A stretch of 64,000 nucleotides of DNA from Escherichia coli. GTDB lineage: Bacteria; Pseudomonadota; Gammaproteobacteria; Enterobacterales; Enterobacteriaceae. This document shows positions 32,277 through 64,000 of this stretch, piece after piece. The first letter of the stretch is position 1, and each line of letters begins with the position of its first letter. Position numbers and translations under genes: made by a program. The notes beneath the pieces are model-generated. The model was not told the origin of the DNA, did not search any database, and saw only the letters and a list, made by a program, of their open reading frames with translations. The stretch is from assembly GCF_003018115.1 (NCBI RefSeq), contig NZ_CP027457.1. One strand, written 5' to 3'.

Positions 32277-33479
32277 ATGCAAAGTGTTGATGTAGCCATT
32301 GTTGGCGGCGGCATGGTGGGGCTGGCGGTTGCCTGCGGCTTACAGGGTAGCGGCTTACGCGTTGCCGTACTGGAGCAGCGCGTACCGGAACCTCTGGCGG
32401 CGGATGCACCACCACAACTGCGCGTTTCGGCTATCAATGCCGCCAGCGAAAAATTACTCACCCGTCTTGGCGTCTGGCAGGACATTCTCTCTCGTAGGGC
32501 CAGTTGTTATCACGGCATGGAAGTGTGGGACAAAGACAGTTTTGGTCACATTTCGTTTGACGATCAAAGCATGGGCTATAGCCATCTTGGGCATATCGTT
32601 GAAAACTCAGTGATTCACTACGCGCTGTGGAACAAAGCGCATCAGTCGTCAGATATCACTCTGTTGGCCCCCGCAGAATTACAGCAGGTCGCCTGGGGAG
32701 AAAACGAAACCTTCCTGACGCTGAAAGATGGCAGCATGTTAACGGCGCGTCTGGTGATTGGTGCGGATGGCGCTAATTCCTGGTTGCGCAACAAAGCCGA
32801 TATTCCGCTGACTTTCTGGGATTATCAGCATCACGCGCTGGTGGCGACCATTCGCACGGAAGAACCGCATGATGCGGTGGCGCGGCAGGTTTTCCACGGC
32901 GAAGGCATTCTGGCCTTTTTGCCGCTTAGCGATCCGCATCTTTGCTCGATTGTCTGGTCCCTATCGCCAGAGGAAGCGCAGCGGATGCAGCAGGCAGGGG
33001 AAGGCGAATTTAATCGCGCGTTAAATATCGCTTTTGATAATCGCCTGGGCTTATGCAAGGTCGAGAGCGAGCGTCAGGTGTTCCCGCTGACGGGGCGTTA
33101 TGCGCGCCAGTTTGCCGCACATCGTCTGGCGCTGGTGGGCGACGCCGCGCATACCATTCACCCACTGGCGGGGCAGGGCGTTAATCTCGGCTTTATGGAC
33201 GCCGCAGAGCTGATTGCTGAACTGAAACGGTTGCATCGTCAGGGTAAAGACATCGGGCAGTACATTTATCTGCGCCGCTATGAGCGTAGTCGCAAGCACA
33301 GTGCGGCACTGATGCTGGCAGGTATGCAGGGCTTTCGCGATCTCTTTTCCGGCGCTAATCCGGCGAAAAAACTGCTGCGCGATATTGGTCTGAAACTGGC
33401 TGATACACTTCCTGGCGTTAAGCCGCAACTTATCCGTCAGGCAATGGGATTAAACGATTTGCCTGAGTGGCTGCGTTAA
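32277..33479 (+). CDS. ubiI: 2-octaprenylphenol hydroxylase, FAD-dependent (400 aa)
   Basis: MQSVDVAIVGGGMVGLAVACGLQGSG FAD-binding N-terminus; paralogue of ubiH. Confidence 0.9.
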   Translation: MQSVDVAIVGGGMVGLAVACGLQGSGLRVAVLEQRVPEPLAADAPPQLRVSAINAASEKLLTRLGVWQDILSRRASCYHGMEVWDKDSFGHISFDDQSMGYSHLGHIVENSVIHYALWNKAHQSSDITLLAPAELQQVAWGENETFLTLKDGSMLTARLVIGADGANSWLRNKADIPLTFWDYQHHALVATIRTEEPHDAVARQVFHGEGILAFLPLSDPHLCSIVWSLSPEEAQRMQQAGEGEFNRALNIAFDNRLGLCKVESERQVFPLTGRYARQFAAHRLALVGDAAHTIHPLAGQGVNLGFMDAAELIAELKRLHRQGKDIGQYIYLRRYERSRKHSAALMLAGMQGFRDLFSGANPAKKLLRDIGLKLADTLPGVKPQLIRQAMGLNDLPEWLR

Positions 33480-33522
33480 AAATTTCTCTTCTGCTGTTTA
33501 TTTGATACGCATCACACTTTCA

Positions 33523-33550
33523 TCTCCCGGTTTTTTCGCCGGGAGATTTT
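33523..33550 (+). terminator. intrinsic terminator after ubiI
   Basis: tctcccgg/ccgggaga stem followed by a T-run. Confidence 0.7.
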
Positions 33551-33925
33551 CCTCATTTGAAATAAACTAATTTCACCTCCGTTTTCGCATTATATTTTCT
33601 AATGCCATGATTTTTTGATTTAGTGTTTTTTGACATTTTTTTAGCTCTTAATATTGTCTTATTCAAATTGACTTTCTCATCACATCATCTTTGTATAGAA
33701 ACTGGTGTGTTTTTTGGTTTTTTATTCTGTCGCGATTTTTGCATTTTTTAACCATAAGCTAATGTGATGATCAATTTTACCTTATGGTTAACAGTCTGTT
33801 TCGGTGGTAAGTTCAGGCAAAAGAGAACGATTGCGTTGGGGACCGGGAGTGGCTCCGATGCTGGGTTTCGTGGTGATAATTTCACCATGAAAAGTTGTCA
33901 GCCCCGCTTATTCAATGAGGACAAG
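33551..33925 (+). promoter_or_regulatory. gcvTHP control region: AT-rich 5-prime leader and promoter
   Basis: About 375 bp, highly AT-rich, upstream of gcvT; GcvA/Lrp/PurR/CRP sites are expected from the literature but not mapped here. Confidence 0.5.
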
Positions 33926-35020
33926 ATGGCACAACAGACTCCTTTGTACGAACAACACACGCTTTGCGGCGCTCGCATGGTGGATTTCCACGGGTGGATG
34001 ATGCCGCTGCATTACGGTTCGCAAATCGACGAACATCATGCGGTACGTACCGATGCCGGAATGTTTGATGTGTCACATATGACCATCGTCGATCTCCGCG
34101 GCAGCCGCACCCGGGAGTTTCTGCGTTATCTGCTGGCGAACGATGTGGCGAAGCTCACCAAAAGCGGCAAAGCCCTTTACTCGGGGATGTTGAATGCCTC
34201 TGGCGGTGTGATAGATGACCTCATCGTCTACTACTTTACTGAAGATTTCTTCCGCCTCGTTGTTAACTCCGCCACCCGCGAAAAAGACCTCTCCTGGATT
34301 ACCCAACACGCTGAACCTTTCGGCATCGAAATTACCGTTCGTGATGACCTTTCCATGATTGCCGTGCAAGGGCCGAATGCGCAGGCAAAAGCTGCCACAC
34401 TGTTTAATGACGCCCAGCGTCAGGCGGTGGAAGGGATGAAACCGTTCTTTGGCGTGCAGGCGGGCGATCTGTTTATTGCCACCACTGGTTATACCGGTGA
34501 AGCGGGCTATGAAATTGCGCTGCCCAATGAAAAAGCGGCCGATTTCTGGCGTGCGCTGGTGGAAGCGGGTGTTAAGCCATGTGGCTTGGGCGCGCGTGAC
34601 ACGCTGCGTCTGGAAGCGGGCATGAATCTTTATGGTCAGGAGATGGACGAAACTATTTCTCCTTTAGCCGCCAACATGGGCTGGACTATCGCCTGGGAAC
34701 CGGCAGATCGTGACTTTATCGGTCGTGAAGCCCTGGAAGTGCAGCGTGAGCATGGTACAGAAAAACTGGTTGGTCTGGTGATGACCGAAAAAGGCGTGCT
34801 GCGTAATGAACTGCCGGTACGCTTTACCGATGCGCAGGGCAACCAGCATGAAGGCATTATCACCAGCGGTACTTTCTCCCCGACGCTGGGTTACAGCATT
34901 GCGCTGGCGCGCGTGCCGGAAGGTATTGGCGAAACGGCGATTGTGCAAATTCGCAACCGTGAAATGCCGGTTAAAGTGACAAAACCTGTTTTTGTGCGTA
35001 ACGGCAAAGCCGTCGCGTGA
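33926..35020 (+). CDS. gcvT: glycine cleavage system T protein, aminomethyltransferase (364 aa)
   Basis: [39 protein letters not shown]-terminus; ATG at 33926. Confidence 0.95.
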
Positions 35021-35043
35021 TTTACTTTTTTGGAGATTGATTG

Positions 35044-35433
35044 ATGAGCAACGTACCAGCAGAACTGAAATACAGCAAAGAACACGAATGGCTGCGTAAA
35101 GAAGCCGACGGCACTTACACCGTTGGTATTACCGAACATGCTCAGGAGTTGTTGGGCGATATGGTGTTTGTTGACCTGCCGGAAGTGGGCGCAACGGTTA
35201 GCGCGGGCGATGACTGCGCGGTTGCCGAATCGGTAAAAGCGGCGTCAGACATTTATGCGCCAGTAAGCGGTGAAATCGTGGCGGTAAACGACGCACTGAG
35301 CGATTCCCCGGAACTGGTGAACAGCGAACCGTATGCAGGCGGCTGGATCTTTAAAATCAAAGCCAGCGATGAAAGCGAACTGGAATCACTGCTGGATGCG
35401 ACCGCATACGAAGCATTGTTAGAAGACGAGTAA
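35044..35433 (+). CDS. gcvH: glycine cleavage system H protein, lipoyl carrier (129 aa)
   Basis: [34 protein letters not shown]; lipoyl-lysine context [11 protein letters not shown]. Confidence 0.95.
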
Positions 35434-35551
35434 CGGCTTTATTCCTCTTCTGCGGGAGAGGATCAGGGTGAGGAAAATTTATGCCTCACCCTCACTCTCT
35501 TCGTAAGGAGAGAGGTTCACAATTCACTGCACGTTTCAGGAACCATCGCTC

Positions 35552-38425
35552 ATGACACAGACGTTAAGCCAGCTTGAAAACAGCGGCGCTTTTATTGAAC
35601 GCCATATCGGACCGGACGCCGCGCAACAGCAAGAAATGCTGAATGCCGTTGGCGCACAATCGTTAAACGCGCTGACCGGCCAGATTGTACCGAAAGATAT
35701 TCAGCTTGCGACCGCGCCGCAGGTTGGCGCACCGGCGACCGAATACGCCGCACTGGCAGAACTCAAGGCTATTGCCAGTCGCAATAAACGCTTCACGTCT
35801 TACATCGGCATGGGTTACACCGCCGTGCAGCTACCGCCGGTTATCCTGCGTAACATGCTGGAAAATCCGGGCTGGTATACCGCGTATACTCCGTATCAAC
35901 CTGAAGTCTCTCAGGGCCGCCTTGAAGCACTGCTCAACTTCCAGCAGGTAACGCTGGATTTAACCGGGCTGGATATGGCCTCTGCTTCTCTTCTTGACGA
36001 AGCCACCGCTGCCGCCGAAGCAATGGCGATGGCGAAACGCGTCAGCAAACTGAAAAATGCCAACCGCTTCTTCGTGGCTTCCGATGTGCATCCGCAAACG
36101 CTGGATGTGGTCCGTACTCGTGCCGAAACCTTTGGTTTTGAAGTGATTGTCGATGATGCGCAAAAAGTGCTCGACCATCAGGACGTCTTCGGCGTGCTGT
36201 TACAGCAGGTTGGCACTACCGGTGAAATTCACGACTACACTGCGCTTATCAGCGAACTGAAATCACGCAAAATTGTGGTCAGCGTTGCCGCTGATATTAT
36301 GGCGCTGGTGCTGTTAACTGCGCCGGGTAAACAGGGCGCTGATATTGTTTTTGGTTCGGCGCAACGCTTTGGCGTACCGATGGGTTACGGTGGCCCACAC
36401 GCGGCATTCTTTGCGGCGAAAGACGAATACAAACGCTCAATGCCAGGCCGTATTATCGGTGTATCGAAAGATGCAGCTGGCAATACCGCGCTGCGCATGG
36501 CGATGCAGACTCGCGAGCAACATATTCGTCGTGAGAAAGCGAACTCCAACATTTGTACTTCCCAGGTGCTGCTGGCAAACATCGCCAGCCTGTATGCCGT
36601 TTATCACGGCCCGATTGGCCTGAAACGTATCGCTAACCGCATTCACCGTCTGACTGATATCCTGGCGGCAGGCCTGCAACAAAAAGGTCTGAAGCTGCGC
36701 CATGCGCACTATTTCGACACTCTGTGTGTGGAAGTGGCCGACAAGGCGGGCGTACTGGCGCGTGCCGAAGCGGCTGAAATCAACCTGCGTAGCGATATCC
36801 TGAACGCGGTTGGGATCACCCTTGATGAAACCACCACGCGCGAAAACGTGATGCAGCTTTTCAGCGTACTACTGGGGGATAATCACGGGCTGGACATCGA
36901 CACGCTGGACAAAGACGTGGCTCACGACAGCCGCTCTATCCAGCCTGCGATGCTGCGCGACGACGAAATCCTCACCCATCCGGTGTTTAATCGCTACCAC
37001 AGCGAAACCGAAATGATGCGCTATATGCACTCGCTGGAGCGTAAAGATCTGGCGCTGAATCAGGCGATGATCCCGCTGGGTTCCTGCACCATGAAACTGA
37101 ACGCCGCCGCCGAGATGATCCCAATCACCTGGCCGGAATTTGCCGAACTGCATCCGTTCTGCCCGCCGGAGCAGGCCGAAGGTTATCAGCAGATGATTGC
37201 GCAGCTGGCTGACTGGCTGGTGAAACTGACCGGTTACGACGCCGTTTGTATGCAGCCGAACTCTGGCGCACAGGGCGAATACGCGGGCCTGCTGGCGATT
37301 CGTCATTATCATGAAAGCCGCAACGAAGGGCATCGCGATATCTGCCTGATCCCTGCCTCTGCGCACGGCACTAACCCGGCTTCCGCGCATATGGCAGGAA
37401 TGCAGGTGGTGGTTGTGGCGTGTGATAAAAACGGCAACATCGATCTGGCTGATCTGCGCGCGAAAGCGGAACAGGCGGGCGATAACCTCTCCTGTATCAT
37501 GGTGACCTATCCTTCCACCCACGGCGTGTATGAAGAAACGATCCGTGAAGTGTGTGAAGTCGTGCATCAGTTCGGCGGTCAGGTTTACCTTGATGGCGCG
37601 AACATGAACGCCCAGGTTGGCATCACCTCGCCGGGCTTTATTGGCGCAGACGTTTCACACCTTAACCTGCATAAAACTTTCTGCATTCCGCACGGCGGTG
37701 GTGGTCCGGGTATGGGACCGATCGGCGTGAAAGCGCATCTGGCTCCGTTTGTACCGGGTCATAGCGTGGTGCAAATCGAAGGCATGTTAACCCGTCAGGG
37801 CGCAGTTTCTGCGGCACCGTTCGGTAGCGCCTCTATCCTGCCAATCAGCTGGATGTACATCCGCATGATGGGCGCAGAAGGGCTGAAAAAAGCAAGCCAG
37901 GTGGCAATCCTCAACGCCAACTATATTGCCAGCCGCCTGCAGGATGCCTTCCCGGTGCTGTATACCGGTCGCGACGGTCGCGTGGCGCACGAATGTATTC
38001 TCGATATTCGCCCGCTGAAAGAAGAAACCGGCATCAGCGAGCTGGATATTGCCAAGCGCCTGATCGACTACGGTTTCCACGCGCCGACGATGTCGTTCCC
38101 GGTGGCGGGTACGCTGATGGTTGAACCGACTGAATCTGAAAGCAAAGTGGAACTGGATCGCTTTATCGACGCGATGCTGGCTATCCGCGCAGAAATTGAC
38201 CAGGTGAAAGCCGGTGTCTGGCCGCTGGAAGATAACCCGCTGGTGAACGCGCCGCACATTCAGAGCGAACTGGTCGCCGAGTGGGCGCATCCGTACAGCC
38301 GTGAAGTTGCGGTATTCCCGGCAGGCGTGGCAGACAAATACTGGCCGACAGTGAAACGTCTGGATGATGTTTACGGCGACCGTAACCTGTTCTGCTCCTG
38401 CGTACCGATTAGCGAATACCAGTAA
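35552..38425 (+). CDS. gcvP: glycine dehydrogenase (decarboxylating), P protein (957 aa)
   Basis: [23 protein letters not shown]-terminus; PLP-dependent. Confidence 0.95.
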
Positions 38426-38447
38426 TTCACTGATTCGACTATCTTCT

Positions 38448-38470
38448 AAAGGCGCTTCGGCGCCTTTTTA
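38448..38470 (+). terminator. intrinsic terminator after gcvP
   Basis: ggcgc-ttcg-gcgcc hairpin followed by TTTTT; A-run upstream suggests it could act bidirectionally. Confidence 0.75.
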
Positions 38471-38544
38471 GCTTGTTAATAAAGTGCGCTTTGTGTGTTT
38501 CGGCTGAGGCGTAATATAAAATCTTGCGAGCTCAATATATTAAA

Positions 38545-38590
38545 AGAGTGCCAGGCCTGATGAGCGTATCGCATCAGGCACATCGGCTAA
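38545..38590. repeat. REP palindromic unit
   Basis: gccaggcctgatgagcgtatcgcatcaggcacatcggc resembles the REP consensus. Confidence 0.6.
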
Positions 38591-40051
<1,461 letters not shown>

Positions 40052-59385: not shown

Positions 59386-62256
59386 TTATATTTTTTCCAG
59401 CGCAGTGAGTATTTTCTCCGGTGTGAAATGCCATTCGCGTAACCAGATGCCGCATGCATCGTGAATTGCGGTAGCAATCGCCGGAGCTGCGCCATTTACA
59501 CCGATTTCCGAGATCGATTTCGCCCCGAACGGGCCGACTTTATCGTCGCTCGGCACCAGCACAGCGCGGAAATCACGCGGAATGTCACCAATTTTCGGTG
59601 CGCCGTAACTGCGTAAATCACGCGTTAACGGGTGACCTTCGGCGTCATAAATGATCTCTTCGCTCATACTGTGGCCGATAGCTCGCAGGGTAGCACCGTA
59701 GATTTGTCCCAATGCTAATTCCGGGTTGACCGGTGTACCGCAGTCCAGCAAGGCGTAGAATTTATCCAGGCGGATTTCACCCGTACGCGTGTTGACGGCA
59801 ACTTCAGCGAAGTTTGCGCCATACGGGAAGGCGAAATCAGGCGTGATATAACTGCCAGTTCCCACCAGTGAACCAAAGCCGGTGCCGGTTTCGCCTTTAT
59901 GGGCAATATCCCCGAAACTAACTTCGCCTTTCTTGCCGCGCACGACGCCCGGCGTTGCCAGTTGAACATCTGCCACTGCCTCACCCAACATTTGCGCGCC
60001 GTGGAACAGAATTTTCTCCCGTAGATTTTCCGCTGCCAAACGCGCCGCGTTACCCGAGAAGCAAGTACCGGACGAGGCATATGCGCCTTTATCAAACAAC
60101 GCATGATCGGTATCACCGGAGATAACATGCACGTCCTGTGGTGGGCAGTGCAGCACTTCTGCTGCCAGTTTCGTCACCACAGTATCCAGACCAGTACCAA
60201 TATCCGCACCGCCAGAATGAACAATAAAGGTGCCGTCCGATTCCAGTTTGATCATGCAGTTAGCCTGATCGATATCCGGAATACCCGATTTCTGCATGAT
60301 AATGGCGACGCCGCGACCGATGTGCCAGTCACCATTTTGCGGTTTCGGTGAAGACCATTGGATCATCTCGCGACCCTGACGCAGGATCTCTTCCAGTGCA
60401 CAGCTGGCGGCGGAAGGAACGGAGGTCGGCGCTTTACCTTCACCGATTGCACCGAGAATTTTCAGCTCTTGCCCTTCGTGTACCCGGTTACGTTCGATAA
60501 TTTCCAGTTGGTCGATCTGTAACTGTTCAGCAAGTTCCGCTAATGCCATGGTGATAGCGAAGTTACCTTTCGGTGCGCCATAACCCTGATAAGCACCATT
60601 TGGGCAAATGTTGCTGTAGTAGGTGGTGACCTGGAAATCGACGTTATCGCACGGATATAACGGCAGCGACAGCGCCGGTCCGTTACACGGTACGGTGAGT
60701 GAGTGGTTGCCGTAAGGGCCAGTGTTGGCGCGGAAATCCATCTTCACTGCCGTCAGGCGACCATCTTTTTTCGCTCCCAGTTTGACGGTGACTTTCGCGA
60801 CGTGACGAGAGGTGTTAGCAATAAACTCTTCTTCACGGGTGTAGCGGAACAGTACCGGACGCCCGGTCACGCAGGTTGCCCAGGCGCACACTTCTTCCAG
60901 CAGGATGTCCTGTTTGGAACCAAAACCGCCGCCAACTCGCTCTTTAATGACATGAACTTTATGCTGTTTCATGCCCACGAGGCGCGCGACCTGGCGGCGT
61001 AAGTGCCATGGTACCTGGGTGGAGGCGTGGATAACCAGACGATCGCCGTCCATCCGGGTAAAGCAGATATGTGTTTCAGTCGGGCACTGCTGTGCCTGCG
61101 TTGAGTTATAGGTTCGCTCAATGATCACATCGGCATCGGCAAAGCCTTTGTCCATATCGCCAATATGACCATGAATACTGGCGGCGATATTTTTGCGAGG
61201 GCGAGAACCGATCGGGAAGTTGATGATCATATGCTCGCCGCGCTGGGCTGCATGGCTGTTATCGTCTTCCAGAGTATCTGGCGCACCAGCAACATACACC
61301 ACCGGTTCATCGTGCACGACAGGCGCATCTTCCGCCATTGCTTCGTCGATCGACATTACCGGCTTAAGCACTTCATATTCAACGTCGATGAGCTTCAGTG
61401 CTTCGAGCGCAATTTCTTCACTTTCTGCGACGACCGCAGCAACACGATCGCCGACGTGACGCATTTTCTTGCCGAACATACGGCGGTCAAGCGGTGACGG
61501 TTCCGGTGCGCTCTGACCCCCCGGGGTATAGTAGATATCCGGGCAATTCAGGTGAGTAATAACGTGAACGACGCCCGGTAAGGCTTCAGCTTTGCTGACA
61601 TCCAGATGAGTAATCAGTGCGTGAGCGTGTGGGCTACGTAACATTTTAATGACGCAGGCGTCAGCCGTTACGCGGTCTTCAACATAGCAGGGTTTCGCCT
61701 GCACCATTTTCGCGGCATCAGTTTTAGGATAATGCTTGCCAATGACTTCAAGGTCGTCACGGAAAGTCGGAGCGATATCAATGGTGGCCTGCGGATTATT
61801 TTTACGTGCAACCGCCAGTTCAATGACCTGATAGTATTGTTGCCAGCCTGCATCGCGGCTGAACAAACCAGAAAGCGCGTCGTCGATCTCTTCGCGGGTA
61901 GGTGCGGCGATGCGATCGAGAAGATCGGTGATAATCAGAGCTGCAGCTGGATCGTTATAACCAGACTGCACCACGCCAACATCAACCATTGCCTGTTGAA
62001 CCAGACTTAACTCGTTCCATTTGCCCAGAGATTCTGCGGTACGAATATCTGCCTTCTCTAACTGTGCGGCAATAAGCAAGGACGCGTTAACGATATTACC
62101 GTTAAAGATTATTGCGTCAGAACCGGCAAACCCGAAGCCATCATCACTGTTGCGTACAGAGTGCATTCCCATGTTAAACAACAGCTTTTGCACGTTTTCG
62201 CCTGGATTAACGGTTAGCTCCTGAGGCGCGCCATTTAAAGTAAAGTGGATGATCAT
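59386..62256 (-). CDS. xdhD: molybdopterin-dependent xanthine-dehydrogenase-family fused subunit (956 aa)
   Basis: 956-aa ORF whose length and position (between xanQ and ygfM) match XdhD; no individual motif was checked. Confidence 0.85.
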   Translation of the reverse strand: MIIHFTLNGAPQELTVNPGENVQKLLFNMGMHSVRNSDDGFGFAGSDAIIFNGNIVNASLLIAAQLEKADIRTAESLGKWNELSLVQQAMVDVGVVQSGYNDPAAALIITDLLDRIAAPTREEIDDALSGLFSRDAGWQQYYQVIELAVARKNNPQATIDIAPTFRDDLEVIGKHYPKTDAAKMVQAKPCYVEDRVTADACVIKMLRSPHAHALITHLDVSKAEALPGVVHVITHLNCPDIYYTPGGQSAPEPSPLDRRMFGKKMRHVGDRVAAVVAESEEIALEALKLIDVEYEVLKPVMSIDEAMAEDAPVVHDEPVVYVAGAPDTLEDDNSHAAQRGEHMIINFPIGSRPRKNIAASIHGHIGDMDKGFADADVIIERTYNSTQAQQCPTETHICFTRMDGDRLVIHASTQVPWHLRRQVARLVGMKQHKVHVIKERVGGGFGSKQDILLEEVCAWATCVTGRPVLFRYTREEEFIANTSRHVAKVTVKLGAKKDGRLTAVKMDFRANTGPYGNHSLTVPCNGPALSLPLYPCDNVDFQVTTYYSNICPNGAYQGYGAPKGNFAITMALAELAEQLQIDQLEIIERNRVHEGQELKILGAIGEGKAPTSVPSAASCALEEILRQGREMIQWSSPKPQNGDWHIGRGVAIIMQKSGIPDIDQANCMIKLESDGTFIVHSGGADIGTGLDTVVTKLAAEVLHCPPQDVHVISGDTDHALFDKGAYASSGTCFSGNAARLAAENLREKILFHGAQMLGEAVADVQLATPGVVRGKKGEVSFGDIAHKGETGTGFGSLVGTGSYITPDFAFPYGANFAEVAVNTRTGEIRLDKFYALLDCGTPVNPELALGQIYGATLRAIGHSMSEEIIYDAEGHPLTRDLRSYGAPKIGDIPRDFRAVLVPSDDKVGPFGAKSISEIGVNGAAPAIATAIHDACGIWLREWHFTPEKILTALEKI

Positions 62257-63032
62257 ACGGCTTCCTCCCCAGCCTGTTGGCAGTCGGCATACAGGTCGGC
62301 TACCAGAACTCCCGTGATATAGCGTTTATAGGCTACGCTGCCCCGCAAATCTTCCTGCGGGAAAATGTCGTTGGCGACAGCCTGTTCAAGTGCATTGCCT
62401 TCCAGATTTTGTTTTTCGACATCGTGCAGACGCAGTGCTTTACTGGCGACGCCATCCAGCGCAATTCGCATACCGTCGTGGTCTGTTATTGCAACGGCTG
62501 CCGTCACGACGGTTAAACCTGCCTGAGAACGGCTAATTTTGCGGGTCGCACAGGTGCGATACGGATCTTTAATGATAATTTCGGTTAGCAGGCGATCGCA
62601 TGGGCAGGCCAGGTAGTCCTCGATTGACAGCGTTTCGCCGTTGCCAAAAACCAGTTCAGCATCCAGTGCCAGCAGGACGGGAAGCAGCACCGACTCTTCC
62701 TGGCGGGCGGCGATTTCACCACCAATGGTCGACTGATTACGAACATGGCGTGAGTAAACAAAACCGAGGGCTTCACGCAGCGCTGCAGGAATAAATCGCG
62801 CATCACGCAGTGGCTGCAAGCGAGACATTGCGCCAATCCGCAGCGCACCGTTATCCCAGTCAACCCAGTCCAGTTCCAGATCCTGTAAGGAGATGGCAAT
62901 CTTTTTATCGGTACGGGTTGGTGTAGCATTGAGTTTGCTGCCCCCGGCGAACCAGACGGCTTCATCCTGGTAGCGGCGCTTCAGTTCCAGCGCCTGTTCG
63001 ACAGAGTCGGGCCTGAAAAATTGTTCAATCAT
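62253..63032 (-). CDS. ygfM: FAD-binding subunit of a molybdo-oxidoreductase, CoxM-like (259 aa)
   Basis: Stop overlaps the xdhD start; FAD-binding PCMH-type domain. Confidence 0.85.
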   Translation of the reverse strand: MIEQFFRPDSVEQALELKRRYQDEAVWFAGGSKLNATPTRTDKKIAISLQDLELDWVDWDNGALRIGAMSRLQPLRDARFIPAALREALGFVYSRHVRNQSTIGGEIAARQEESVLLPVLLALDAELVFGNGETLSIEDYLACPCDRLLTEIIIKDPYRTCATRKISRSQAGLTVVTAAVAITDHDGMRIALDGVASKALRLHDVEKQNLEGNALEQAVANDIFPQEDLRGSVAYKRYITGVLVADLYADCQQAGEEAV

Positions 63033-63082
63033 CTTCTTTCCTTATTTAACCCTCTTCCCTGCGGGAAGAGGGCATCTGTCAT

Positions 63083-64000
63083 TTATGCCAGCGTATCCAT
63101 CCGACGCCACATACTGGCAGCGGCTTTTCTGGCTTGTGCATAAATGGAATCGCAATCGAAGTTAAACTGACGGTCTTCATAGACCATCACACCGTTGACC
63201 ATCACGCTGTGAACGCTGCCTGAGCCCATACCGAAAGCGATATGCCCGGCGATATTGTCTGCCAGCAGCGGCGTCGGTGAGTTGTAATCGCAAATGGTTA
63301 AATCAGCTTTGTAACCGGCTTCCAGAAGCCCAAATTTCGCGCCAAAGTTGCGGCTCATCAGTTCGTTACCGTTAGTCAGGGCTTTGGCAAAACTGTCAGG
63401 CCACAGCGGACCACCCGCATCGCGATGTTTAAAGAAGGCAAATTTCATCTCTTCAAACATGTCCGAACCAATGCCGTCCGTTCCCAACGCCAGATTGCGG
63501 ATGTCGCTAAGGTGATGGTTGTAGCCGACATGGTTGTTCATGTTTGAACGGGCGTTATGCACCAGGAACGCATCGCGCTGATTGAGTAGGGTGATGTCAT
63601 CTTTCGACAAGTACAGCCCATGAGCGACCAGCGTTTTGCTATCGATGAGATCGAATTGCGCTAGTCGTGCCAGCAGGTCTTTGCCGTACCAGTGGTGACT
63701 GTAGGAAACGTCGTAAAGGTCTTCCGCAGCGTGAATATGCAAACCACGGCCTGTGGCTTTCACGGCTTCACGTAGCATCTCCAGACCGGCATCCGGCACG
63801 GTAAACGGCGCGTGAGCACCGATATGTGCTTCCACCAGATACGGCTCGGTTGCTGCTTTCTTCGCCTCATCAATCTGACGGGCGAAGCGGATGTTTTCTT
63901 CTACACCTTCCTGCAACTCTTTGATGCCGTTGTTACGGTCAGTAGTTTCAAAACAGGTCATCGCGCGCAGGCCAACTTTTAAAAATGCGTCGCGCAATGT
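63083..64000 (-). CDS. ssnA: putative aminohydrolase SsnA, C-terminal ~304 codons; start lies beyond the window end
   Basis: ORF open to the window edge; assigned as ssnA from its position in the xdhD-ygfM cluster and amidohydrolase-like size. Confidence 0.8.
   Translation of the reverse strand, partial: TLRDAFLKVGLRAMTCFETTDRNNGIKELQEGVEENIRFARQIDEAKKAATEPYLVEAHIGAHAPFTVPDAGLEMLREAVKATGRGLHIHAAEDLYDVSYSHHWYGKDLLARLAQFDLIDSKTLVAHGLYLSKDDITLLNQRDAFLVHNARSNMNNHVGYNHHLSDIRNLALGTDGIGSDMFEEMKFAFFKHRDAGGPLWPDSFAKALTNGNELMSRNFGAKFGLLEAGYKADLTICDYNSPTPLLADNIAGHIAFGMGSGSVHSVMVNGVMVYEDRQFNFDCDSIYAQARKAAASMWRRMDTLA

Follow-up and report, generated by a model that had tools for sequence, protein, structure and literature searches.

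In the gcvTHP operon of Escherichia coli, gcvH and gcvP are separated by a 118-nt spacer, which was analysed here in a 64-kb E. coli window (the window is the whole stretch of DNA under study, and its coordinates are used throughout). The three hairpins of this spacer (H1, H2 and H3) are, as judged from their sequence, a degenerate inverted (palindromic) pair of the already-known repeat family BoxC / PIT / TMECO. What is new here is an additional degenerate copy of this family, outside the published list of 23 copies in strain MG1655. A large share of gcv transcripts appears to end in vivo 4-9 nt past the central hairpin, and it is fairly likely that the decayed BoxC pair, via H1-H3, forms or protects the 3' end of a gcvT-gcvH sub-transcript. 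The repeat leftover probably helps to keep the gcvP message below the gcvT-gcvH message.

Fold and family of the spacer repeat

The spacer (35434..35551, + strand) lies between the upstream cistron gcvH (35044..35433 with the stop codon included, + strand, 129 aa; taken from the list of open reading frames and its translation, and named gcvH in the annotations of K-12 and of strain VTB96775v) and the downstream cistron gcvP (35552..38425, + strand, 957 aa). It is identical to positions 3,049,042-3,049,159 of K-12 MG1655 (NC_000913.3), where the annotation has no feature under it. RNA folds were computed for the + strand unless stated. The minimum free energy (MFE) of the spacer is -44.3 kcal/mol, compared with -29.6 +/- 3.4 kcal/mol for shuffled sequences (z = -4.35; 0 of 200 dinucleotide shuffles were as stable), and the - strand gives a weaker fold (z = -2.40). 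A preliminary description of this DNA, made from the letters alone, had reported three consecutive hairpins within the 118 bp, and RNA folding bears this out. H1 (35443..35462, + strand) has 8 bp including one U.G pair and a UGCG loop (-11.8 kcal/mol); H2, the central hairpin (35465..35492, + strand), pairs AGGGUGAGG with CCUCACCCU over 9 bp around a 10-nt A/U-rich loop and is the most stable of the three (-15.1 kcal/mol); H3 (35495..35514, + strand) has 8 bp including one U.G pair and a GUAA loop, replaced by GCAA in some strains (-10.6 kcal/mol). According to the repeat finder, the whole element is an imperfect palindrome about the H2 loop, with arms at 35445-35473 and 35484-35512, and H1 and H3 are direct repeats of one another. 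The gcvP leader (35516..35551, + strand) is separate from the repeat. It carries the Shine-Dalgarno motif AGGA at 35538-35541, 23 nt beyond the end of H3 at 35514, so that the cluster does not stand immediately before this motif, as had been described.

BoxC dates from descriptions of the 1990s, and work on the family includes that of Hoyne and Maher. The repeat was later named PIT (for potential intrastrand triplex) and TMECO; its consensus is CCCTCNCCC-N3-6-GGGNGAGGG-N3-GGGNGAGGG, and 23 copies are listed for MG1655, with inverted pairs at five sites (Holder et al. 2015, PMC4666352). The left BoxC/TMECO-like unit of the gcv element (35443..35474, + strand) reads TCCTCTTCT-GC-GGGAGAGGA-TCA-GGGTGAGGA, and the right unit (35483..35515) is inverted and reads CTCTCTCCTTACGAAGAGAGTGAGGGTGAGGA on the - strand, as an imperfect mirror of the left one. 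The gcv copy shares with the family the order of its blocks (pyrimidine block, loop, purine block, 3-nt linker, second purine block), the arrangement as an inverted pair around a central spacer (as in 4 of the 5 K-12 pairs) and the intergenic location. It departs from the family in failing the strict consensus: when compared by eye, the left unit mismatches 5 of the 24 specified positions and its first loop has 2 nt instead of 3-6. Both linkers are TCA, unlike the family types TTA (type A) and CCG (type B); at the same site, linkers are CCG and TAA in Pseudocitrobacter, and TTA and TAA in another Escherichia. The gcv stems measure 8-9 bp as against 9-11 bp, and three local hairpins are preferred over one extended hairpin. 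By inspection, GGGAGAGGA and GGGTGAGGA keep 7 consecutive Hoogsteen-compatible positions; the terminal triplets are lost, and one triplet stands on a G.T mismatch of the DNA hairpin.

A strict TMECO regular expression, with the loop relaxed to 2-7 nt, gave 0 matches in the window, and the gcvH-gcvP site is missing from the published 23-copy MG1655 list; the element was therefore considered as a degenerate relative and not as a consensus member. Profile searches recover it, with significant similarity to copies at other loci. An nhmmer profile of inverted pairs, built only from four K-12 BoxC pairs at non-orthologous loci, matched 35448-35514 with E = 4.8e-6 on the + strand and E = 1.3e-4 on the - strand, which were its top matches in the 64 kb. 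With a single-unit profile derived from the 23 published MG1655 copies, the best match of the window was 35452-35473 (E = 0.012). When the window spacer was used as a blastn query, one copy per genome was found in 5425 of 5426 complete E. coli genomes (96.6-100% identity), a single-copy result that first argued against a repeat; the family emerged only when a clean same-site copy from Enterobacter was used as the query, which found a median of 19 matching places per E. coli genome.

Other identities were tried and rejected. The preliminary description had suggested a decayed REP-like insertion, of which the decayed repeat insertion stands and the family does not, since the pair profile points to BoxC and the spacer (35434-35551) contains no REP motif (GCCGGATG... 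/ ...CATCCGGC stem); genuine REPs are readily visible at the same site in Citrobacter and Lelliottia, and at 38553-38580 of the window. An Rfam 15 search of 33000-39000 (E <= 10) gave whalefall-1 as the sole overlap, at 19.8 bits against a gathering threshold of 37 (E = 0.15), which was taken as chance. A consensus scan for promoters and terminators found nothing in the spacer. The REP, small RNA, riboswitch and translational-operator readings were dropped, being without a supporting feature.

Mapped RNA 3' ends

Because the K-12 spacer is identical to that of the window, the 3'-end maps of MG1655 apply directly and their coordinates can be converted. By Term-seq, a 3' end was mapped at K-12 position 3,049,097 (- strand), which is window position 35496, 4 nt past the H2 stem, with 412,219 reads (LB, optical density 0.4) and 171,112 reads on a second sheet (PMC7815308, Supplementary file 1). 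The sequence context given for this end is ...GCCTCACCCTCAC[T]CTCTTCGTAA, its format (50 nt, the end, 10 nt) having been verified on the sgrS row. The intrinsic terminator at the operon end, after gcvP (38451..38470, + strand; GGCGC-TTCG-GCGCC, then T5), was used for comparison: its 3' end, at K-12 position 3,046,123 (window 38470), has 36,065 reads (PMC7815308), and the gcvH-gcvP internal end has about 11 times as many. The TRS map, an independent analysis, places a terminus at 3,049,090-3,049,101, with peaks at 3,049,092-095, or window 35498-35501 (PMC10687069, supplementary files 4 and 5). It is classed there as 'Alternative primary in TU, gcvH', with a score of 0.73-0.91 (0.56-0.99 for the gcvP terminator) and a U count of 2 for the H2 tail versus 5 for the gcvP terminator (PMC10687069). 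Mapped termini cluster at 35492..35503 (+ strand), and both maps combined give a 3' end at 35496-35501, 4-9 nt past H2 and within the 5' arm of H3. The tail that follows H2 is CACUCUCUU, with 4 U in 9 nt and no U-tract. The SMRT-Cappable-seq supplements contain no gcv entry.

Other BoxC hairpins, both canonical and degenerate, also stand just upstream of 3' termini in the K-12 Term-seq and TRS data, mostly within about 10 nt; these are examples, collected without an enrichment test. They include 847,196-200 at the glnH-glnP junction of the glnHPQ operon, which is intercistronic like gcvH-gcvP, as well as 164,638 (hrpB), 388,647 and 388,687 (hemB), 3,239,706 (alx), 3,390,482, 3,390,499 and 3,390,541 (tldD and aaeR, on both strands), 3,781,065 (lldD), 3,959,467 and 4,231,270, with an ilvC-antisense site among the examples. 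Neither 3'-end mapping paper mentions BoxC (checked for Adams et al.).

The same two maps show further 3' ends in the gcvT 5' untranslated region and about 65 nt into gcvT, at window positions ~33870 and ~33991 (K-12 3,050,723 and 3,050,602), with 80,000-105,000 reads. These ends may reflect leader attenuation or a 5'-derived RNA from upstream of the operon.

Variation of the element and of its site

Clean BoxC pairs are found after gcvH in Enterobacter cloacae, E. asburiae, Pseudocitrobacter, Buttiauxella, Siccibacter and many metagenome contigs. They have the form CCCTCTCCC-loop-GGGAGAGGG..GGGGTGAGGG..spacer..CCCTCACCC..CCCTCTCCC-loop-GGGAGAGGG, and their preferred fold is one extended hairpin of about 30 bp (-60 to -73 kcal/mol). 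For the E. coli copy, three hairpins give -40.3 kcal/mol and the extended form -27.2 kcal/mol, a gap of 13 kcal/mol in favour of the former; when only local pairing is allowed, three local hairpins, mostly of 8-11 bp, persist in all BoxC-type spacers of this site. Inspection of the E. coli stems against the family consensus reveals two compensated pairs (C:G to U:A, outermost in H1 and second in H3), two C-to-U changes giving U.G wobbles at the equivalent position in H1 and H3, and zero disruptive mismatches. It is the loss of 1-2 bp per stem and the gain of U.G pairs that lead the gcvTHP mRNA to form three separate hairpins of 8-9 bp. Since the U.G pairs form only on the mRNA-sense strand, the E. 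coli element folds at -40.5 kcal/mol on this strand versus -30.3 kcal/mol on the other.

Stepwise compensated changes in the central stem were also observed among BoxC pairs at this same site. In one series (L100, L181, L159), GGGTGAGGGG/CCCTCACCC becomes GGGTGAGGGG/CCTTCACCC, with a G.U intermediate, and then GGGTGAAGGG/CCTTCACCC; in another contrast (L120 against L106), GGGGTGAGGG/CCCTCACCC stands against GGGGCGAGGG/CCCTCGCCC with the pairing retained. Retained pairing in a DNA palindrome is no proof of selection on the RNA, as homogenisation at the DNA level could give the same pattern.

Variation within the species was surveyed in a metagenome scan using the conserved gcvP leader, which yielded 113 spacers, 61 of them distinct. 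The E. coli-type spacers comprise six haplotypes, plus one low-coverage contig that probably contains sequencing errors. Haplotypes differ only in the H2 loop (AAAATTTATG, AAATTTACG, AACTTTTACG or AACATTTACG) and in that of H3, which reads GTAA or GCAA; no variation was seen among them in stems, linkers or flanks. All 4 variable columns therefore lie in loops, 3 of the 4 in the H2 loop. The loops make up 18 of the 118 nt, and the chance that all four columns would fall there under an even spread is (18/118)^4, or about 5e-4, as our own rough estimate. With 4 differences (96.6% identity), the most divergent haplotype coincides with the lower bound of the main identity range of the 5425 genomes. 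The E. coli strain VTB96775v (NZ_CP178634.1, locus L206, 327-495) has a spacer of 170 nt with a partial duplication of both H3 and H2, in inverted order; the duplication may have arisen by a template-switch rearrangement mediated by the palindrome, or else be an artefact of assembly.

For comparison across species, spacers were extracted from the gcvH loci of 80 species and classified roughly, the window being counted among the 80. BoxC pairs or solo BoxC hairpins occupy about 13 of them, and the solo hairpins of some contigs resemble deletions that run from H1 to H3. REP, in some cases together with ERIC, is present in about 17, and ERIC alone or with a terminator-like hairpin in about 6, which makes about 23 with REP and/or ERIC. 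REP occupies the site in Citrobacter, Lelliottia and some Enterobacter, and ERIC does so in Citrobacter koseri, Kluyvera, Serratia marcescens and a Providencia metagenome-assembled genome, so that different elements are found even within Enterobacter and within Citrobacter. Only a GC hairpin followed by a T-run is found in 28 of the 80 spacers, starting 4-32 nt past the gcvH stop codon (54 nt in one case), in Pantoea, Photorhabdus, Providencia, Dickeya, Pectobacterium, Yersinia, Serratia, Shewanella and Idiomarina; outside the Enterobacteriaceae proper the spacer usually begins in this way, with a GC-rich hairpin, and the loci concerned are L037, L043-L044, L048-L050, L052-L054, L056-L058, L060-L062, L064-L065, L067-L072, L078 and L081. 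Five spacers (Erwinia, Rosenbergiella) have only 8-23 nt and are free of hairpins, and the remaining ones hold other hairpins. The sequence of the spacer is hence unconserved across genera, and a stable hairpin just past gcvH is nevertheless found at most of the 80 sampled sites. The preliminary description had counted non-conservation in related species against its proposals; such a criterion would mislead here, because BoxC, REP, ERIC or a terminator-like hairpin alternate at the site.

Dickeya dadantii has an internal terminator past gcvH, at which about 71-76% of transcripts end (PMC9239193), and in our own sample the Dickeya spacers have a hairpin and T-run 4-5 nt past the gcvH stop codon. 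This distribution suggests that a terminator-type hairpin after gcvH, acting as an attenuator, is the older or ancestral state of gcvTHP. In our reading, based on the comparison of spacer sequences, this ancestral hairpin would have been repeatedly replaced by hairpin-forming repeats in the Enterobacteriaceae.

Proposed role of the hairpins, alternatives and neighbouring observations

The position and strength of the 3' end are given by the public maps, and the identity and fold of the repeat by the analyses above; that the hairpins cause this end, by which route, and that selection keeps them in place is what we infer. The hairpins, chiefly H2, would create or protect the 3' end at 35496-35501. 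In the likelier route, they would halt 3'-to-5' exonucleases after a cleavage or termination event further downstream; in the less likely one, they would bring about weak factor-independent termination. Either route would let a stable gcvT-gcvH sub-transcript accumulate over the full-length gcvTHP transcript and leave the gcvP message lower. Protection is favoured over true termination because the tail has no U-tract, because the scan found no terminator and because PIT elements had no terminator activity in reporters; the 4-9 nt spacing fits intrinsic termination, and weak termination was for this reason kept as a live rival. In plant mitochondria, glycine cleavage requires more H protein than P protein, and such a need would provide a plausible purpose for the arrangement in E. 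coli. The differential mRNA stability within gcvTHP that had been proposed from the sequence is thus in agreement with the Term-seq and TRS end, the causal part played by the hairpins being the conditional step.

Several points weigh against this interpretation. Mapping of 3' ends cannot separate termination from processing, and PIT/BoxC elements have been reported to act neither as promoters nor as terminators and to leave RNA polymerase unaffected (cited in PMC4666352). The 3' end follows H2 and not H3; an exonuclease arriving from downstream should meet H3 first, so that the barrier model must assume either a cut between the two hairpins or the opening of H3 as the weaker one. Polymorphism restricted to the loops could reflect hypermutable single-stranded loops of a palindrome, and templated mutation or gene conversion can produce compensated changes in palindromes without selection. 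In other genera, folding showed no systematic strand asymmetry, so that the family as a whole offers no evidence of this kind for selection on the RNA. RNAalifold, run on a MAFFT alignment of 29 BoxC-type spacers, returned a covariation term of only -0.81 kcal/mol, which is uninformative as the low-complexity repeats mis-register. The high turnover of BoxC, REP and ERIC also fits a merely permissive insertion site, and no measured GcvH:GcvP protein ratio for E. coli came to light.

The element could instead be a decaying selfish or accidental BoxC insertion, the Term-seq peak being a by-product of exonuclease trimming that leaves ends at any stable hairpin, with no relevance to gcv expression. 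The family has no demonstrated function and is associated with instability of the surrounding genome (PMC4666352), the copy has diverged from the consensus, one E. coli genome has an apparent palindrome-mediated rearrangement of the element, BoxC, REP, ERIC and solo hairpins alternate at the site even within genera, and Erwinia and Rosenbergiella do with an 8-23 nt spacer and no hairpin. We nevertheless consider this explanation rather doubtful: the variation sampled in E. coli is confined to loops, the about six substitutions that separate the stems from the consensus include no disruptive one, most of the 80 sites have some strong hairpin after gcvH, and the 3' end ranks with the stronger ones of the region, its reads being 11 times those at the terminator of the operon. 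It is also possible, though unlikely, that H2 and its pyrimidine-rich tail CACUCUCUU act as a weak intrinsic terminator which releases some of the transcripts and replaces the canonical hairpin and U-tract of other Enterobacterales. The termini lie at the usual distance of intrinsic termination past the H2 stem, 28 of the 80 relatives have a terminator-like hairpin with a T-run here, and the authors of the Dickeya study state that their data agree with E. coli SMRT-Cappable-seq and SEnd-seq data (PMC9239193). What speaks against termination is the tail itself (4 U in 9 nt, no U-tract, TRS U count of 2 against 5 at the gcvP terminator), the 10-nt loop of H2, the empty consensus scan of the spacer and the lack of terminator activity of PIT elements in reporter tests (cited in PMC4666352).

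An action at the level of DNA, as an intrastrand triplex, a cruciform or a hot spot of replication or recombination, and not through RNA, is improbable. Consensus copies do form an intrastrand triplex in vitro and repeat loci are more rearranged between strains (PMC4666352); in addition, the inverted partial duplication of strain VTB96775v affects the element, and a canonical K-12 pair together with ygfF, just downstream of gcvP, is missing from the window strain. Footprinting in vivo, however, failed to support a triplex even with consensus copies (PMC4666352), and the gcv copy has lost the terminal triplets and carries a G.T mismatch in its DNA duplex; its spacer is stable in 5425 of 5426 genomes, and its G.U pairs favour the transcribed strand as RNA. 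Translational control of gcvP, where the hairpins would mask or expose the ribosome-binding site or uncouple gcvH-gcvP translation, is hardly likely and finds no support in the folds; an effect on translation had been put forward in the preliminary description beside mRNA stability. The element does lie in the untranslated spacer 5' of gcvP, and a gap of 118 nt makes translational coupling from gcvH unlikely, but H3 ends 23 nt before the Shine-Dalgarno motif, the repeat is not paired with this motif or with the gcvP start codon in the MFE or the centroid structure, and the leader with the ribosome-binding site is conserved regardless of the repeat upstream.

REP/BIME elements stabilise intercistronic mRNA, as in the case of malE-malF, and this stabiliser effect was established by deletion. 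The gcv element resembles them as a repeat-derived stable hairpin between cistrons, with 3' ends just past a stem and an upstream message expected to be more abundant; it has no similarity to the REP consensus (GCCGGATG...), and for gcv a stabiliser effect is putative. The internal terminator of Dickeya dadantii occupies the corresponding place in the operon and leads to the same result, in that a gcvT-gcvH transcript is formed and a minority of transcripts read through into gcvP (PMC9239193); it consists of a canonical GC hairpin and a U-tract, without being a repeat, whereas the E. coli element is BoxC-derived and has no U-tract. ERIC/IRU elements are likewise transcribed, hairpin-forming enterobacterial repeats that occupy this spacer in some relatives, but they are about 127 bp long, unrelated in sequence and missing from the spacer of the window. 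Unlike the BoxC/PIT/TMECO family as a whole, which has no assigned function in the literature, the gcv copy coincides with a major mRNA 3' end.

An unannotated structured spacer of a textbook operon now finds an explanation, and a degenerate copy is added to a family whose published catalogue used a strict pattern. The BoxC/PIT papers report no function, and the 3'-end maps list strong "orphan" or "alternative primary" termini, several of them just past BoxC hairpins, without remarking on these; neither literature cites the other in this respect. Should the link prove causal, BoxC would stand beside REP among the repeats with an influence on operon stoichiometry, and the gcvH-gcvP junction would be a clear case of unrelated hairpin elements swapping at one functional position. 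A more tentative extension, which we regard as possible and not as probable, is that BoxC/PIT elements genome-wide are hairpins that form or protect RNA 3' ends, the gcvH-gcvP pair being kept by selection on its stems after taking over the job of an ancestral attenuating terminator, as REP and ERIC would have done in sister genera.

Three neighbouring observations were made in the window. The core of the gcvP leader, ATTCACTGCACGTTTCAGGAACCATCGCTC (35522-35551, 30 nt), is almost invariant across Enterobacteriaceae, independently of the type of repeat upstream; this conservation exceeds what the Shine-Dalgarno motif alone would need, and the core may be a binding or processing site. Downstream of gcvP, the window (38426-38590) is without ygfF and without the canonical BoxC inverted pair (published TMECO 10+11) that K-12 has after the gcvP terminator, and passes through about 120 bp with a REP (about 38553-38580) directly to the bglA stop codon. 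This is a strain-variable segment beside a BoxC site, as the 2015 paper (PMC4666352) would predict. A solo BoxC-like hairpin, CCCTCTTCCC-TGC-GGGAAGAGGG, is found at 63050-63072, with a weak profile match (E = 0.16); it lies in the 50-bp gap between two - strand open reading frames (63083..63997 and 62253..63032) and is again intercistronic.

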